NCBI GenBank assembly: GCA_937899865.1
Contig: CALBRH010000051.1
Coordinates: 32,001-96,000 of the forward strand
Reading direction: 5' to 3'
Source of the DNA: an uncultured euryarchaeote
Lineage (GTDB): Archaea > Thermoplasmatota > Poseidoniia > Poseidoniales > Poseidoniaceae
DNA length: 64,000 nucleotides
In this document: positions 31,817-37,955 of the stretch, in pieces
How positions within the stretch are numbered: the first letter of the stretch is position 1
Layout of the letters: the number at the start of each line of letters is the position of its first letter
The notes under the pieces: model-generated
What the model was told of the DNA's origin: nothing
The model's input: only the letters and a program-made list of their open reading frames with translations
Databases searched by the model: none
Position numbers and translations under genes: made by a program

Positions 31817-32092
31817 GTGGCAAGACCAAATGAATCAGAATTGATTGTCCCTCTAAGGAAGGCTTGGAACATTACTCGCTACAAACGTGCTCCAAGAGCA
31901 ATTCAAATTATCAAAGATCATGTTGTTCAACACTTGAAGGTTAAGGAAGATGAAGAAGTTTGGATTGATCCTTCAGTTAACGAAAAGATCTGGGAACGAG
32001 GTATTGAAAATCCTCCACGTAAGATTCGTCTACAAGTTATTCGACACGATGAACCAGATATTCCAATCGAAGTTAAATTATTTCAGGAGTGA
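31817..32092 (+). CDS. rpl31e: 50S ribosomal protein L31e
   Basis: VPLR..KRAPRAI..IK, IDP.VNE.IW.RGI..PP.KIR. GTG start after GAGGTGA. Confidence 0.93.
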   Translation: MARPNESELIVPLRKAWNITRYKRAPRAIQIIKDHVVQHLKVKEDEEVWIDPSVNEKIWERGIENPPRKIRLQVIRHDEPDIPIEVKLFQE

Positions 32093-32299: not shown

Positions 32300-32509
32300 A
32301 TGCCAGTGCGCATTGATTGGGATAGACATCCAGTCAGCATTCATAGTGAAGATAAATCCGAGTTAGAGGATTTAATCGAGTATTTGAAAATTAAACATTC
32401 CATTCTTAAGCGTTCAATAATTATGGATGATAGAGAGTCAGGCGGATTTTTGTTTTTTGTATACCAACCTTGTGACCCAAGATGGATTGTTGAATTTTAT
32501 AATAGGTGA
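32300..32509 (+). CDS. Small hypothetical protein
   Basis: 69-aa ORF fitting between rps17e and trmJ; its stop overlaps the next SD (AGGTGA). Confidence 0.7.
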   Translation: MPVRIDWDRHPVSIHSEDKSELEDLIEYLKIKHSILKRSIIMDDRESGGFLFFVYQPCDPRWIVEFYNR

Positions 32510-32513
32510 TCAT

Positions 32514-33338
32514 GTGGGTGATAGAAAGGATATTCCTTTACCAAGTTCATCTTATGAATTGGTGCTAATATGCGTAGATACCAGTCATCCTGGAAACCTT
32601 GGGGCTATTTGCCGTTCAATGATGAATTATGGCTATGACAAACTAAGGCTGGTTAATCCTCTATGCGACCCTAATGATATTGAAGCAAGAAATCGAGCCA
32701 AACATGCTGGTCAAATACTTGATAACGTTCAAATTTTTGAATCATTAGAAGAATCAGTAAAAGATTGCTCTTTAGTTGTTGGTACATCTGGTAAAAGAGA
32801 AGTTGGCCCAAAGACATCATTTAGGCACTTTAGTTTCCCATGGGACTTATCTAAAAGGTTCAATGAATCCAGCAATAAAATTGCTCTTGTTTTTGGCGGC
32901 GAGGGTACAGGATTGTCTACTGAAGATTTACAAAAATGTGATTTCCTAACTACTTTGCCGACATGGGAGGGATACCCAATAGCTAATCTTTCACATTCTG
33001 TCAATGGTTTTCTCTATCAACTCCATTCTGACAGAGTAAGAAATCAACAAGGTATTGATGCAGGATTACCTGAAATTGTACCTATTGAGGGAGATTTATC
33101 TCCTGAATTAAGAGATACCTTTCTAGAAGCAGTAGAGCAATTCAGTTTATCTGTGCCCGGTAATCAAGAACGAAAAGACAGTATTAAGAATTCATTAACG
33201 AGAATGGTAATGAAATCATCTCCTACTAATGATGAAGTTACTAGATTGATTGGCGGACTAATTGATGCTACCACATCATTACAATATACAACCAATGATG
33301 AAAATTGGAAAAAGAATCGTCGTCGAAGAGTTGAATAG
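32514..33338 (+). CDS. trmJ: SPOUT RNA methyltransferase, TrmJ-like
   Basis: HPGNLGAICR.M.N.G, A..RA.HA, ALVFGGE..GL, YP.ANLSH.V. GTG start at 32514. Confidence 0.85.
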   Translation: MGDRKDIPLPSSSYELVLICVDTSHPGNLGAICRSMMNYGYDKLRLVNPLCDPNDIEARNRAKHAGQILDNVQIFESLEESVKDCSLVVGTSGKREVGPKTSFRHFSFPWDLSKRFNESSNKIALVFGGEGTGLSTEDLQKCDFLTTLPTWEGYPIANLSHSVNGFLYQLHSDRVRNQQGIDAGLPEIVPIEGDLSPELRDTFLEAVEQFSLSVPGNQERKDSIKNSLTRMVMKSSPTNDEVTRLIGGLIDATTSLQYTTNDENWKKNRRRRVE

Positions 33339-33339
33339 A

Positions 33340-33789
33340 TTATTTGTGCCAACTTGCAACAGATTTAGGAGTCTCCCATACATGCATAGCAACTAATTGT
33401 AGCTTATTTCCGTATGTCGAAACAATATGTGGCTCAACTTGTTCAAATGCCCATTTTGCTAAATTTTCTGCTGTTGGTATGAAATCTACAACAACAGTTC
33501 TATGGTCATCGCCCATGCATTCTAATGCTTTCAAAGCAGTCTCATCACCTCGATAAACAACAAAAGCATGATCAACGACATCATGTACTTCCCGTGTTAG
33601 TATAGTGCTAATATCTGAAAAGTCCATCAGCATACCTTCATCAGATACTCCGCTAACATCAACAACATCTCCTTCAATTTCTGCCTCAAACCTATATCTG
33701 TGTCCATGCAAATGTTTGCACTTACTTTTGTGATTAGGAACTCGATGTCCTGTATCAGTTTCAACATATCTTCTAATTCTTGTAACCAT
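33340..33789 (-). CDS. queD: 6-carboxy-5,6,7,8-tetrahydropterin synthase
   Basis: GHRVPNH..KC..LHGH, MDF..I, DH, PTAEN, VWETP. Confidence 0.92.
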   Translation of the reverse strand: MVTRIRRYVETDTGHRVPNHKSKCKHLHGHRYRFEAEIEGDVVDVSGVSDEGMLMDFSDISTILTREVHDVVDHAFVVYRGDETALKALECMGDDHRTVVVDFIPTAENLAKWAFEQVEPHIVSTYGNKLQLVAMHVWETPKSVASWHK

Positions 33790-33791
33790 TA

Positions 33792-34934
33792 TTATTCCTC
33801 CTTGAAAATTAGTGCAGCAGAATTAATGCAATATCTTTCGCCGCCATACTCTTTTGGACCATCTTCAAACACATGTCCAAGATGTGCATCACATTTTGAA
33901 CATTTGACTTCAATTCTTACCATGCCATGACTATTATCAGTAATTCTTGCTATATTGGCATCCACTGATTCTGAGTGAAAAGCAGGCCATCCACAGCCAG
34001 AATTATATTTGCTTTGAGAACTAAAAAGCAGATGATTACAGCAAATACAGTAGTAATTTCCCTTAACAAAATGTTTGTCATATATTCCAGTAAATGCTCT
34101 TTCAGTAGCACTATTCCGAGTAACTTGATACTGTAGTTCAGTTAATTTTTCCCGATATATTTTGTCCATATATTCTTTTTCTACTGATAAAGCATGGTCA
34201 AGAACTTGCTGCCAATCTTGTTGGTACATTACAGGGTCTTTTCTACCAATAGCATGAAATGCCAAAATTCTTTCAATATCTGAGCCAGTTTTTCCTGAAC
34301 TTCGACCTTGTTCATCAGGATCATATGACGTGTTAGTATTGGCAAATATTGTGTCAAAATCTAAGCCTAAATGTTCGCAAGAAACAATAGCATCACGTAG
34401 TATTGATTCCTTGTCACCATCGATATATGGCAAATCCAAATTCACATTTTCACTATCCCAATTACCTTTTTCAAAAGCCTCATTCAAACTTTGATAAAAT
34501 TCAGGCCTGCAATCAGGATATATTGCATGATCTCCCGAGTGCACTCCAAGAGAAATAGAAACATTACACTCAAATTGTTTGCTAAGACTTAGTGCATAGC
34601 CATAAATCATTGAAGAAAAAATAGCGTTCCTATTTGGTACAACGGTAGATTTCATTTGTTGTTCTTCATAGTGGCCTTTTGGTACATCTTCATTTGAGGT
34701 TAATGAACCAGTAAACATTGACATTAATGAGGATAAATCTACTACATTGTGAGAAATTTTGTATCCATTTTCAGATAAATAATCGATGTTGTCTTGTGCT
34801 CTTGATAATTCTACAATATGTTTTTGTCCATAATTGAAACCAATTGTATAAACAGTATTTCCTTCTCTAAGTAGTCGCAATAACAACGATGTGGAATCCA
34901 TACCACCACTGAGGGCCATAACTGCAATTTTCAT
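33792..34934 (-). CDS. queC-msrB: QueC (7-cyano-7-deazaguanine synthase) fused in frame to methionine-R-sulfoxide reductase MsrB
   Basis: aa 1-255: SGGMDS, YGQKH..E, VVPNRN, YPDCRPEF. aa 256-380: LT..QY.VTR..ATE..F, CICC, SGCGWPAF, CSKCDAHLGHVF.DGP, RYCINS. Confidence 0.92.
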   Translation of the reverse strand: MKIAVMALSGGMDSTSLLLRLLREGNTVYTIGFNYGQKHIVELSRAQDNIDYLSENGYKISHNVVDLSSLMSMFTGSLTSNEDVPKGHYEEQQMKSTVVPNRNAIFSSMIYGYALSLSKQFECNVSISLGVHSGDHAIYPDCRPEFYQSLNEAFEKGNWDSENVNLDLPYIDGDKESILRDAIVSCEHLGLDFDTIFANTNTSYDPDEQGRSSGKTGSDIERILAFHAIGRKDPVMYQQDWQQVLDHALSVEKEYMDKIYREKLTELQYQVTRNSATERAFTGIYDKHFVKGNYYCICCNHLLFSSQSKYNSGCGWPAFHSESVDANIARITDNSHGMVRIEVKCSKCDAHLGHVFEDGPKEYGGERYCINSAALIFKEE

Positions 34935-35587
34935 TAGTCAATCCCCATCCATTTATGCGTTTGTAGTGATAATCTCCATTTTGGATTATTTTTAACAACT
35001 GATTCGGTCAATGCGAAATTTTTACCGTTCCATTCAACAGTCTCTGATTCCATGTAGCAGGGTTGGAGATATAGATTAGAAAAACCATCAATTAAATTAT
35101 CATAAAGTGATAAATCCTGGCCTATGTATACACATTTTAACTCATCACCAGTTCTTTGCTTAATCTTAGAGTTTGGATATAATTGATCTTTTGGCGAAAC
35201 ACAGATCCAATCAATTAATCCATCATCTATTGGTATTGTACCATTAGTCTCTATCGATATATGATAGTCTCTTGCTTTTAGCAATCTTTGTAGTGGCCAC
35301 AAATCATTGAGCATTGGCTCGCCACCAGTGAAAATAATATTTTTGCAATCAAATTCCTCTATCTTGTTAATGATGCTTTGACAATTCATTTTGTCATATT
35401 GCAAGAAGTCAGTATCACACCACTCACATCGCAAATTGCAATTGCCAAAGCGAACAAATACATGAGGTATGCCAGCACGAAATCCTTCACCTTGTACGGA
35501 ATGAAAAATCTCTACAATATCATATTCACACGCAAGATCTGAATCTGTTTGTGCAGAATCTTGATTATCAACAGTTAAATTTTGCAT
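34934..35587 (-). CDS. queE: 7-carboxy-7-deazaguanine synthase (radical SAM)
   Basis: EIF.S.QGEG, CNLRCEWCDT, TGGEP, IETNG, SPK, WRLSLQTHK. Confidence 0.93.
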   Translation of the reverse strand: MQNLTVDNQDSAQTDSDLACEYDIVEIFHSVQGEGFRAGIPHVFVRFGNCNLRCEWCDTDFLQYDKMNCQSIINKIEEFDCKNIIFTGGEPMLNDLWPLQRLLKARDYHISIETNGTIPIDDGLIDWICVSPKDQLYPNSKIKQRTGDELKCVYIGQDLSLYDNLIDGFSNLYLQPCYMESETVEWNGKNFALTESVVKNNPKWRLSLQTHKWMGID

Positions 35588-35596
35588 ATTATTTCC

Positions 35597-36157
35597 TCAA
35601 TTGTTGATTAATTGGAATAATTCTTGCCTTGCTTCTGCTTTGTCAAAAAATACACCTCGCATAGCAGATGTAGTCATCAAAGCATTAGCTTGCTTGACGC
35701 CACGACACCTCATGCATCCATGTGCGGCTTCTATTATTACTGCGCAGCCCAGAGGTACTAGATGCTCTTCTAAATCATCTGCAATACCTTTGGTAATTCT
35801 TTCTTGATTTTGTAATCTCCTTGCATGGCATTCTACGATGCGCGACAGTTTAGAAATCCCTACAATCCTATCTACTGGTATGTAAGCAACATGTGCTTTT
35901 CCGTTGAATGGTTGAAGATGATGTTCACAAGTGGAGTGAAATTCAATATCCTTTAACAAGACAATACCGTCATAACCTTCACCATTGAATGTTGAACTTA
36001 GAATTGTTTTGGCATCCATATGATAACCACCAAATATTTCATCCCAAGAATCGATTACACGATTAGGAGTATCAAGTAATCCTTCTCTTTCAACATCTTT
36101 TTCCAGGTATCCTAAAAGTACCTTAACAGCGTCTTTAGCTTCATTTCTTGTTGGCAT
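35597..36157 (-). CDS. folE: GTP cyclohydrolase I (FolE type)
   Basis: REGL.DTP.R, STCEHH..PF.G, GISKL.R, LQ.QER.T, A.H.CM..RG. Confidence 0.95.
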   Translation of the reverse strand: MPTRNEAKDAVKVLLGYLEKDVEREGLLDTPNRVIDSWDEIFGGYHMDAKTILSSTFNGEGYDGIVLLKDIEFHSTCEHHLQPFNGKAHVAYIPVDRIVGISKLSRIVECHARRLQNQERITKGIADDLEEHLVPLGCAVIIEAAHGCMRCRGVKQANALMTTSAMRGVFFDKAEARQELFQLINN

Positions 36158-36161
36158 AATA

Positions 36162-36323
36162 TCATCTCCCATTCCTAATATCTATCTCATCCAATTGATC
36201 TAACAGTTTTCTGCATGCGGTTCTAATTGCATCAGCAACACTGACAAATTTTTTCTCATCTCCAACGTGTTTTCTGATGTCGCTTAGAATTTCAGCTGGC
36301 ATATCTAACGACACTTTAGGCAT
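36162..36323 (-). CDS. 53-aa ribbon-helix-helix (CopG/Arc/MetJ-like) transcriptional regulator (not in ORF track)
   Basis: Hand translation MPKVSLDMPAEILSDIRKHVGDEKKFVSVADAIRTACRKLLDQLDEIDIRNGR: alternating beta-strand, helix, turn, S..DAIR helix. Stop is 4 nt before the folE ATG. Confidence 0.8.
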   Translation of the reverse strand: MPKVSLDMPAEILSDIRKHVGDEKKFVSVADAIRTACRKLLDQLDEIDIRNGR

Positions 36324-36370: not shown

Positions 36371-36464
36371 ATACGATTATTTCATTCTTTCATTGCTTTA
36401 TTTTCACTTATTCTTAAGCGAATGTTGAAGAAGCGTCAAGAATCGAATGATAATGATGAAGGCA

Positions 36465-37955
36465 ATGAGCAACGCGGAAGATGGACTCACGGCGCTAAAA
36501 GAAATTAGAAATAATTCTGGCAATATGGATACTATTGGCCTTAGTGATGAAGTAATAGAAAAATTCTGCAAATTAGATTCTAACTTATTGCAGGCCATAT
36601 CTGAAGCATTGAGTAATCATAGGGAGTTGCGCAATAGATTAGGCGATGAAGTGATGCAATCTAACGAAATAGATTTGGTTTCCAAACTCCAAGAAGATTT
36701 TGTCAATTTTTACGCACCGGCAACTGTTAATCCATATGTTGCTATGGCTGCTAAAGGTCCTTGGATCGTTACATCGCATGGCGCTGTTGTCCATGATAAT
36801 GGGGGGTATGGGATGCTTGGTGCAGGACATGGCCCTTCTACAGTAATTGATGCAATGTCGCAAAATTGGGTCATGGCAAATGTCATGACTCCATCATTTA
36901 GTCATAGCAGATTATCTAATGCATTAAGGAAAGAATTGGGCCATACTAGGGGTAATTGTCCCTTTTCTAAGTTCATCTGTATGAATAGTGGTTCCGAGTC
37001 AATGACTGTTGCATTAAGAATCGCTGATATTAATGCAAACAATCAGACTGCTTCTGGAGCTAAGTATGAAAATTTCCCGATTAAAATGGTTGCAGTTGAA
37101 CGCAGTTTCCATGGTAGGACAGACAGGCCAGCACAAATTTCAGACTCCTGTAAATCAGGTTATGATAAGAATTTAGCAACATTTCAAAATAGAGACAATC
37201 TAATATTAGTCCCTGCTAATGATTCAGCTGCCCTAGAAGAAGTGTTCAAAAGATCTGTAACTGAAAAATTCTTCATTGAATTAGTCGCTATTGAACCAAT
37301 TCAAGGTGAAGGTAATCCTGGTATGTGCGTCACTAGAGAATTCTATGATGTAGCAAGAAGATTGACAAAGGAACATGATTCAATGTTATTAGTTGATTCC
37401 ATACAGGCTGGAATTAGGGGTCAAGGATGCCTATCAGTAATTGATTATGATGGCTTTCAAGATGCTGAAGTACCTGATATGGAAACCTGGTCAAAAGCAA
37501 TTAATGCAGGACAATATCCTCTTTCAGTATTGGGTATGAATGAAAGATCTGCTTCAATGTATGTTGTTGGAATTTATGGTAATACCATGACAACTAATCC
37601 TCGTGCTTTAGAAACTGCAGTAGCGGTCCTAGGGCAGATAACACCAGAACTTCGTAATAATATCAAGGAACGTGGCGAAGAGTTTGTGGAAAAATTGAAA
37701 CAACTCGCTATTGAACTCCCTGGTACAATTACCAAGGTTCAGGGGACAGGTCTATTGTTAAGTGCAGAATTAGAACCAAGTAAATTCCCAGTTGTCGGAT
37801 TTGATGCAGTTGAGCCATGGTGCCGTCGTAAGGGATTAGGTGTTATTCATGGGGGCCATAATGCATTGAGATTTACCCCTCACTTTAGAATAACATCAGA
37901 AGAAATTGACTTAATTATTGATATTGTAAGAGCAGCTCTAATTGAGTTTTCATGA
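36465..37955 (+). CDS. lat: Class III aminotransferase, L-lysine 6-aminotransferase-like
   Basis: FVNFYA...PYVA.AA.GPW, GGYGMLG.GH, NSGSE, FHGRTDRPA, DSIQA, PDMET.SKA, YGNTMTTNPRAL, as recalled for the Flavobacterium lutescens-type LAT. Confidence 0.72.
   Translation: MSNAEDGLTALKEIRNNSGNMDTIGLSDEVIEKFCKLDSNLLQAISEALSNHRELRNRLGDEVMQSNEIDLVSKLQEDFVNFYAPATVNPYVAMAAKGPWIVTSHGAVVHDNGGYGMLGAGHGPSTVIDAMSQNWVMANVMTPSFSHSRLSNALRKELGHTRGNCPFSKFICMNSGSESMTVALRIADINANNQTASGAKYENFPIKMVAVERSFHGRTDRPAQISDSCKSGYDKNLATFQNRDNLILVPANDSAALEEVFKRSVTEKFFIELVAIEPIQGEGNPGMCVTREFYDVARRLTKEHDSMLLVDSIQAGIRGQGCLSVIDYDGFQDAEVPDMETWSKAINAGQYPLSVLGMNERSASMYVVGIYGNTMTTNPRALETAVAVLGQITPELRNNIKERGEEFVEKLKQLAIELPGTITKVQGTGLLLSAELEPSKFPVVGFDAVEPWCRRKGLGVIHGGHNALRFTPHFRITSEEIDLIIDIVRAALIEFS

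Follow-up and report, generated by a model that had tools for sequence, protein, structure and literature searches.

A gene that joins QueC, an enzyme of archaeosine precursor (preQ0) synthesis, in frame to the methionine-R-sulfoxide reductase MsrB was analysed in a 64,000-nucleotide (nt) stretch of DNA from a member of the Poseidoniaceae (the window: positions 32,001 to 96,000 of contig CALBRH010000051.1, assembly GCA_937899865.1). The fusion gene, queC::msrB, lies at window positions 33792-34934 on the minus strand: it is a single frame of 380 amino acids (aa) plus stop codon, without internal stops, and was defined by open reading frame (ORF) translation, Pfam and NCBIfam matches and homologues. 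The fusion is genuine and occurs widely across the order Poseidoniales. On balance, we favour a bifunctional protein in which each half works on its own. It was probably born by the collapse of overlapping gene boundaries, and its two parts would be linked only by co-expression.

The original prediction, made from this DNA without database searches, that QueC continues in frame into an intact MsrB was confirmed. The QueC (PP-loop ATPase) domain (aa 4-228; window 34251-34925, minus strand) matched Pfam QueC (PF06508; E = 3.7e-40; 138.1 bits, cut-off 22) over model positions 2-208 of 210, and reached 128.6 bits with NCBIfam TIGR00364, under the equivalog cut-off of 150.3. The MsrB (SelR) domain (aa 264-378; window 33801-34145, minus strand) matched Pfam SelR (PF01641; E = 4.6e-47; 159 bits, cut-off 24.9) and scored 170 bits with NCBIfam TIGR00357 (equivalog cut-off 113). 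Across 34 aligned fused homologues, the catalytic residues of both enzymes were invariant without exception. For QueC, these were SGGMDS (aa 9-14, the PP-loop motif SGGxDS), NRNAIF and YPDCR; for MsrB, the CxxC pairs C296/C299 and C345/C348 (by motif, the zinc ligand pairs), H351 and H354, the resolving C314 of GCGWP and the catalytic C369 of RYCINS. The QueC part of an AlphaFold2 model resembled the solved QueC structures 2pg3 (Pectobacterium) and 3bl5 (Bacillus subtilis), with template modelling (TM) scores of 0.72-0.79, and the MsrB part resembled solved MsrBs (Foldseek; TM 0.75-0.82, 45-50% identity, E around 1e-14). The full-length model had a predicted local distance difference test (pLDDT) score of 81 and a predicted TM score (pTM) of 0.75.

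The two domains are joined by a linker (aa 229-263; window 34146-34250, minus strand), in which the AlphaFold2 secondary structure places a long helix at aa 241-263. The linker is conserved at the protein-sequence level in the 34-homologue alignment and is the least conserved part of the chain: the mean pairwise identity among fused homologues was 0.51 for the linker, 0.69 for the QueC core and 0.70 for MsrB, so that the two domains appear equally constrained. A Shine-Dalgarno or GGAGG-like motif was sought upstream of the junction methionine (aa 256, codon at 34169) and none was found, as had been noted before. This position is Met in 6 of the 34 fused homologues and Lys in 22, and the MsrB part therefore has no conserved internal start.

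The same protein was found on eight contigs and near-identical proteins were present in several more assemblies. Full-length proteins with both Pfam domains make up more than 120 clusters (90% identity threshold), the most distant at 63% identity; where a source name is given for these homologues, it is Poseidoniaceae or Poseidoniales archaeon. Because the fusion recurs in these clusters and in many Poseidoniales genomes, chance or misassembly is ruled out. Fused genes and their unfused neighbours are separated by very small changes, which would suit an artefact in which a sequencing or assembly error erased a stop codon or frameshift between separate queC and msrB genes; with the recurrence on eight contigs, an uninterrupted frame shared by over 120 clusters and seen in about 93 genomes, and a linker kept as protein sequence, such an error has practically no probability. 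In one fused gene (L024, G269:C16), the GHYE-EQMK motif of the QueC domain is interrupted by an in-frame TAG; the sequence is in error there, or the gene has recently become a pseudogene.

The position of the gene within a preQ0/archaeosine operon was borne out by its neighbours. On the minus strand, queC::msrB is preceded by folE (GTP cyclohydrolase I, 35597-36172; Pfam GTP_cyclohydroI, E = 1.9e-65; NCBIfam FolE above cut-off) and queE (radical S-adenosylmethionine 7-carboxy-7-deazaguanine synthase, 34934-35587; Pfam Radical_SAM), and is followed by queD (6-carboxytetrahydropterin synthase, 33340-33789; Pfam PTPS, E = 1.1e-26; NCBIfam best match QueD). FolE catalyses the first step towards preQ0. 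For queE, the best NCBIfam match was TIGR04508 queE_Cx14CxxC, at 139 bits and under the equivalog cut-off. The queE stop codon and the queC::msrB start codon overlap as ATGA, and queD starts 3 nt beyond the queC::msrB stop.

The genome that contains the window (2.01 Mb, 91% complete) carries one SelR match and one true QueC match, both inside queC::msrB, as well as a separate MsrA gene elsewhere and one arcTGT-like gene with TGT, C2 and PUA domains. Since the genome's only SelR and only true QueC domains lie in this gene, the fusion is predicted to provide both the preQ0 synthesis of the cell and its sole MsrB activity. The N-terminal domain, as the only QueC, would convert 7-carboxy-7-deazaguanine to preQ0 with ATP and ammonia, and arcTGT would carry preQ0 on to archaeosine in tRNA. 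The C-terminal domain, as the only MsrB, would be a zinc-containing, thiol-dependent enzyme that repairs methionine-R-sulfoxide in proteins generally.

For assessment of the distribution, 301 genomes of Poseidoniales were surveyed, of which 166 were at least 85% complete, and a set of 39 loci from 24 genera was compared; the msrB gene was scored as fused when SelR lay in an open frame of at least 336 aa. The queC::msrB protein found matches in 263 of the 301 genomes. Exactly one SelR above cut-off was present in 139 of the 166 more complete genomes: about 93 of these were fused and 45 had separate ORFs. The order folE-queE-queC-(msrB)-queD was found in 39/39 loci. Fused genes were characteristic of genera g1, g2, g3, g10, g18 and g26 and of part of g7, g16 and g25. 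An adjacent msrB, between queC and queD, was found in g4, g5, g13, g17, g19, g21 and g24 and in part of g7, g16, g23 and g25. The fusion withstood the conditions of refutation set with the original prediction: it recurs in many assemblies, and the close relatives are fused or carry adjacent queC and msrB genes. In a third state, seen in g6, g14, g15, g20, g22 and part of g23 (genome G037), queC abuts queD: SelR was found nowhere in the searched genomes of these five genera or in G037 (87-98% complete), and their QueC motifs are the same as in the msrB-bearing genera. In g9, msrB is unlinked from the operon.

Among the loci checked, the exceptions were G194 and G206, with msrB on another contig. 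The sole msrB of G194 (G194:C90, L041) was observed on a contig of 2.2 kb, and its product falls with sister-family f4 MsrB in the MsrB tree (support 95), whereas no msrB lies alongside the G194 queC (G194:C126, L040); the msrB contig may be mis-binned, or the gene may have been replaced by transfer.

The loss of msrB followed a pattern in rhodopsin genes. A rhodopsin gene was sought in g6, g14, g15, g20 and g22 and found in 0/11 genomes, and SelR was likewise found in 0/11. All rhodopsin-bearing genera keep msrB except g8, which is represented by a single genome in which queC was undetected too. This association is a genus-level pattern among related lineages and not a statistical test. It fits a role of MsrB as a dispensable general enzyme of photo-oxidative repair, lost together with light-driven physiology while QueC was kept. 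The genera without msrB and rhodopsin may be deep-water lineages.

Outside the order, MsrB is mostly stand-alone in the phylum, and QueC was found within 4 kb at none of 12 msrB loci drawn from further families of Thermoplasmatota, among them the sister family f4 of the same class. A search of 1.84 billion representatives at 50% identity returned a single full-length fusion cluster. QueC plus SelR architectures were thus widespread in Poseidoniales and none was located beyond it in the samples covered, and as far as these samples go the fusion is restricted to the order. Other candidate MsrB fusions were noted in other Thermoplasmatota families, where MsrB lies in frames of 410-456 aa without QueC (G520:C12, G421:C16 and G369:C91).

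The boundaries of the two genes differ between genera by small steps. Unfused pairs overlap by 4 nt (ATGA) in g5, g19, g21 and g23 and by 11-17 nt in g17 and g24; in g4 and in G100 of g7, an in-frame ATG lies within 0-3 nt of the queC stop codon, and two g4 loci have a GGAGG motif at the queC end. Fused proteins showed a long junction (about 380 aa; g1, g2, g10 and g25), with both the C-terminal helix of QueC and the N-terminal helix of MsrB kept, or a short junction (about 362 aa, some 18 residues fewer; g3, G136 of g7, g16, g18 and g26). The short forms of g3, g7, g16 and g18 formed one well-supported clade in the MsrB tree. On a concatenated FolE+QueE+QueC+QueD tree, the fused and adjacent states required seven changes, at least three of them forced by well-supported branches, and the absence of msrB required six. 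Independently of the operon tree, both states, fused and adjacent, are represented within each of g7, g16 and g25. Fusion or fission between queC and msrB has occurred repeatedly; because the trees were unrooted, the direction of the single changes is not established.

The queC-linked MsrBs form a group apart from other Thermoplasmatota MsrBs (Shimodaira-Hasegawa-like approximate likelihood ratio test, 91). This grouping fits a history in which msrB entered the operon a single time, after which it was fused to queC on several occasions and cleanly deleted on several others. Probably, this one insertion between queC and queD took place at the base of Poseidoniales or close to it. The repeated merging and re-splitting is attributed to the tight packing of the operon, in which gene ends overlap. 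In such a translationally coupled unit, with its 4-nt overlaps, small mutations would time and again merge queC and msrB or part them. The operon tree puts genus g1 in two places, and a claim of horizontal exchange of the operon was dropped, as g1 monophyly is compatible with the outcome of an approximately unbiased test (p = 0.41).

By alignment, the QueC of Poseidoniales is a divergent, distinct subfamily of the QueC family, marked by the motifs SGG[ML]DS, GHYxExxMKxTVVPNRN and HSGDHxIYPDCR. It lacks the zinc site: at aa 203-219 (window 34278-34328, minus strand), alignment with Cys4-bearing homologues placed S203, S213, T216 and D219 at the four cysteine positions, where homologues of 50-55% identity read C...CGKCGSC. 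The replacement S/S/S-T/D was found in all 39 Poseidoniales loci aligned, with or without msrB and including g9, where QueC is still Cys-less although msrB is unlinked. In a QueC-family protein, the Cys4 zinc site was reported as highly conserved and functionally important (2026 structural paper, PMC13639016), and a uniformly zinc-free QueC in Poseidoniales conflicts with that site as a conserved, important feature of the family. The conserved QueC methionines Met6, Met12, Met71 and Met94 were equally conserved in lineages with and without msrB, and SGG[ML]DS is a trait of the subfamily, found also in unfused, non-Poseidoniales and viral homologues.

Several side observations were made on QueC homologues. 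A second Cys-less type, with S/D/S-T/S and a loop insertion, occurs among homologues of unknown origin. In P0122, P0123, P0141, P0145, P0157, P0162 and P0166, an intein lies right after GDH (or GND) and before IYPDCR; P0123 has a Pfam Intein_splicing match and its contig looks viral (YopX, AAA_23 and many ORFans).

The favoured explanation, independent halves joined by the collapse of gene boundaries, places the link between the two activities in shared transcription and translation from the operon; the two would share no chemical step and form no obligatory complex. QueC does not appear to need MsrB, because msrB was deleted cleanly in several genera with QueC unchanged. No sequence signal of mutual dependence was found when methionine conservation and the zinc site were compared with and without msrB, and a complex prediction run on QueC (aa 1-256) and MsrB (aa 257-380) as two chains, at a score of 0.02, spoke neither for nor against an interaction. 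Some points weigh against this explanation. The msrB gene has been held in one slot of the preQ0 operon across two families, while the operon proteins diverged to about 60% identity, and genes that are neighbours by mere accident would not be expected to persist in this way; where present, msrB is adjacent or fused in all loci checked save G194 and G206; the whole-chain pTM of 0.75 could mean a defined packing of the domains; and the rhodopsin association spans related lineages and was not statistically tested. The original prediction had proposed that the fusion couples tRNA modification to oxidative-stress repair, or that MsrB protects or activates QueC. Neither proposal gained support, given the clean deletion of msrB beside an unchanged QueC, the methionines and zinc-site substitutions that are the same with and without msrB, and the repeated switching between fused and unfused states. 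Coupling beyond co-expression is therefore a hypothesis at present.

A specific coupling of this kind is unlikely, though it is the most serious of the alternatives: a tethered or co-translated MsrB would keep the enzymes of the preQ0 pathway active under photo-oxidative stress by repairing QueC methionines (Met12 of SGGMDS, Met94) or a partner such as QueE, and the fusion would amount to repair in cis. The presence of msrB within the operon across the whole order, the origin of the fusion more than once, a QueC subfamily with a PP-loop Met (Gln in the solved QueCs) and an invariant Met94, and the retention of msrB in every rhodopsin-bearing genus but g8 would suit it. Equal conservation of the four methionines in msrB-less lineages, the wider occurrence of SGG[ML]DS and the repeated gain or loss of the fused state argue against it, and the genome's only msrB must also serve the remaining proteome. 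Covariation of the conserved QueC methionines with msrB presence was considered as a candidate signal, and none was found. More doubtful is a scenario in which msrB, captured once in the Poseidoniales ancestor, was kept and repeatedly fused since archaeosine precursor synthesis in the light depends on local repair of methionine-R-sulfoxide; Met12 and Met94 at the ATP site of the zinc-free QueC would then be an oxidation-sensitive switch, reset in cis by the tethered MsrB, and tRNA modification would thereby follow the cellular redox state. It is very unlikely that MsrB has taken on a new substrate in 7-deazaguanine or tRNA metabolism, in place of protein methionine-R-sulfoxide, and that the fusion is a true two-step enzyme. 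The conserved operon position is what speaks for this in the genomes, and the 2018 review discussed below left the role of such fusions open (PMC6211008); the domain, however, passes TIGR00357 (170 against 113 bits), keeps all catalytic and resolving residues and is 45-50% identical to characterised MsrBs, in a genome without another MsrB. To our knowledge, the pathway from GTP through preQ0 to archaeosine has no sulfoxide step and no redox step at QueC, which also counts against a new substrate. Least probable of the biological explanations, and largely refuted, is that the zinc-ribbon MsrB stands in for the lost Cys4 knuckle of QueC and is needed for folding or dimerisation. QueC lacks all four zinc cysteines, the attached MsrB keeps four, and the zinc site is reportedly important in the family (PMC13639016); yet the Cys-less QueC stands alone in the msrB-less g6, g14, g15, g20, g22 and G037 of g23, msrB is unlinked in g9, and Cys-less relatives are unfused on virus-like contigs. 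As msrB-less lineages share the Cys-less QueC, this substitution was rejected.

The QueC-MsrB architecture was already recorded in 2018. The original prediction knew of no described link between the two proteins, but a review of archaeal methionine sulfoxide reductases (Maupin-Furlow 2018, 'Methionine Sulfoxide Reductases of Archaea', Antioxidants 7:124; PMC6211008) lists an AANH-MSRB fusion that 'appears unique to archaea' (Fig. 4B); its N-domain is of the QueC type (IPR018317) in 62 proteins, 61 of them from Euryarchaeota (Table S2). The N-domain was modelled on ThiI, with an adenylated substrate 'X' yet to be determined. The example given there, UniProt A0A2D6JNB0 (highlighted Cys162, CysR334 and CysA389), has the same domain order, a QueC-type adenylation domain and MsrB in one archaeal polypeptide; by its published Cys positions, the only basis of this comparison, its offsets of 172 and 227 equal those of C142, C314 and C369 here. 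Whereas the review left the substrate open, the domain analysed here is encoded within a complete folE-queE-queC-queD operon, in a genome with no other QueC, which makes 7-carboxy-7-deazaguanine the most likely substrate X. Literature that links QueC with MsrB by name, or Poseidoniales with Msr, was sought, and nothing specific was found beyond PMC6211008. The present analysis adds the setting in a preQ0 operon, from which the substrate is named, as well as the confinement to Poseidoniales and the adjacent and deleted states. It also adds at least two junction types, repeated fusion and loss, the zinc-free QueC and the rhodopsin pattern. As far as found, PMC6211008 does not report the confinement to Poseidoniales, the adjacent unfused genes, the repeated fusion and loss or the missing zinc site.

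Canonical QueC (3BL5, 2PG3) shares with the fused domain the PP-loop ATPase fold, SGGxDS, YPDCR and the role in preQ0 synthesis, but the fused domain belongs to a distinct subfamily, with Cys4 changed to S/S/T/D and a C-terminal helix and MsrB added. MsrB is likewise joined to another enzyme in one chain in MsrA-MsrB, MsrB-MsrA and thioredoxin (Trx)-MsrAB (PilB) fusions, and identity between the MsrB domain here and its counterpart in solved MsrAB fusions is 43-45%. The partners in those fusions share a repair pathway, unlike QueC, for which we know of no chemical connection with methionine sulfoxide repair. A GAT-QueC fusion of the archaeosine pathway was reportedly described in Crenarchaeota by Phillips and co-workers in 2012, with GAT said to be a proposed amidotransferase of the same pathway; we treat it as a lead only. 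It also combines QueC with a second enzyme domain in the archaeal archaeosine pathway, and its partner, unlike MsrB, is proposed to act in that pathway. The closest Cys-less relatives outside Poseidoniales are viral QueCs of QueD-QueE-FolE-QueC-DpdA clusters (51-58% identical, on virus-like contigs, one beside DpdA), which have no MsrB and serve the modification of DNA, not of tRNA. One Cys-less QueC, P0137 (L046, L047), was observed in such a QueD-QueE-FolE-QueC-DpdA cluster, on a contig with a ParB-methylase, a Cas12f-like TnpB and a ribonucleotide reductase; the contig probably belongs to a virus that modifies its DNA with 7-deazaguanines and has a QueC of the Poseidoniales subfamily.

The operon is headed by a small ribbon-helix-helix (RHH)-like ORF of 53 aa (36162-36323, minus strand; ORF listing and tblastn), which overlaps the folE start and completes the order RHH-like ORF, folE, queE, queC::msrB, queD. 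With tblastn, this ORF was found at 70-94% identity directly 5' of folE in 35/39 Poseidoniales loci, and it is probably a regulator of the operon. A class-III aminotransferase gene (36447-37955, plus strand) is divergent from the operon, and a SpoU-family RNA methyltransferase gene (32427-33338, plus strand) lies just 3' of queD.

In public annotations the full-length protein is called either 'MsrB' or 'QueC' alone, which the operon context corrects. The three states found across the order (fused, adjacent, and cleanly deleted in rhodopsin-less genera) show the merging and splitting of translationally coupled genes, and they are a caution that a gene fusion is not proof of a shared pathway. 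The uniformly zinc-free QueC may be of interest for work on 7-deazaguanine enzymes and, among microbes of the surface ocean, on metal economy or oxidative stress. If there were a true coupling of the two domains, tRNA modification would be linked to the oxidative repair of proteins.

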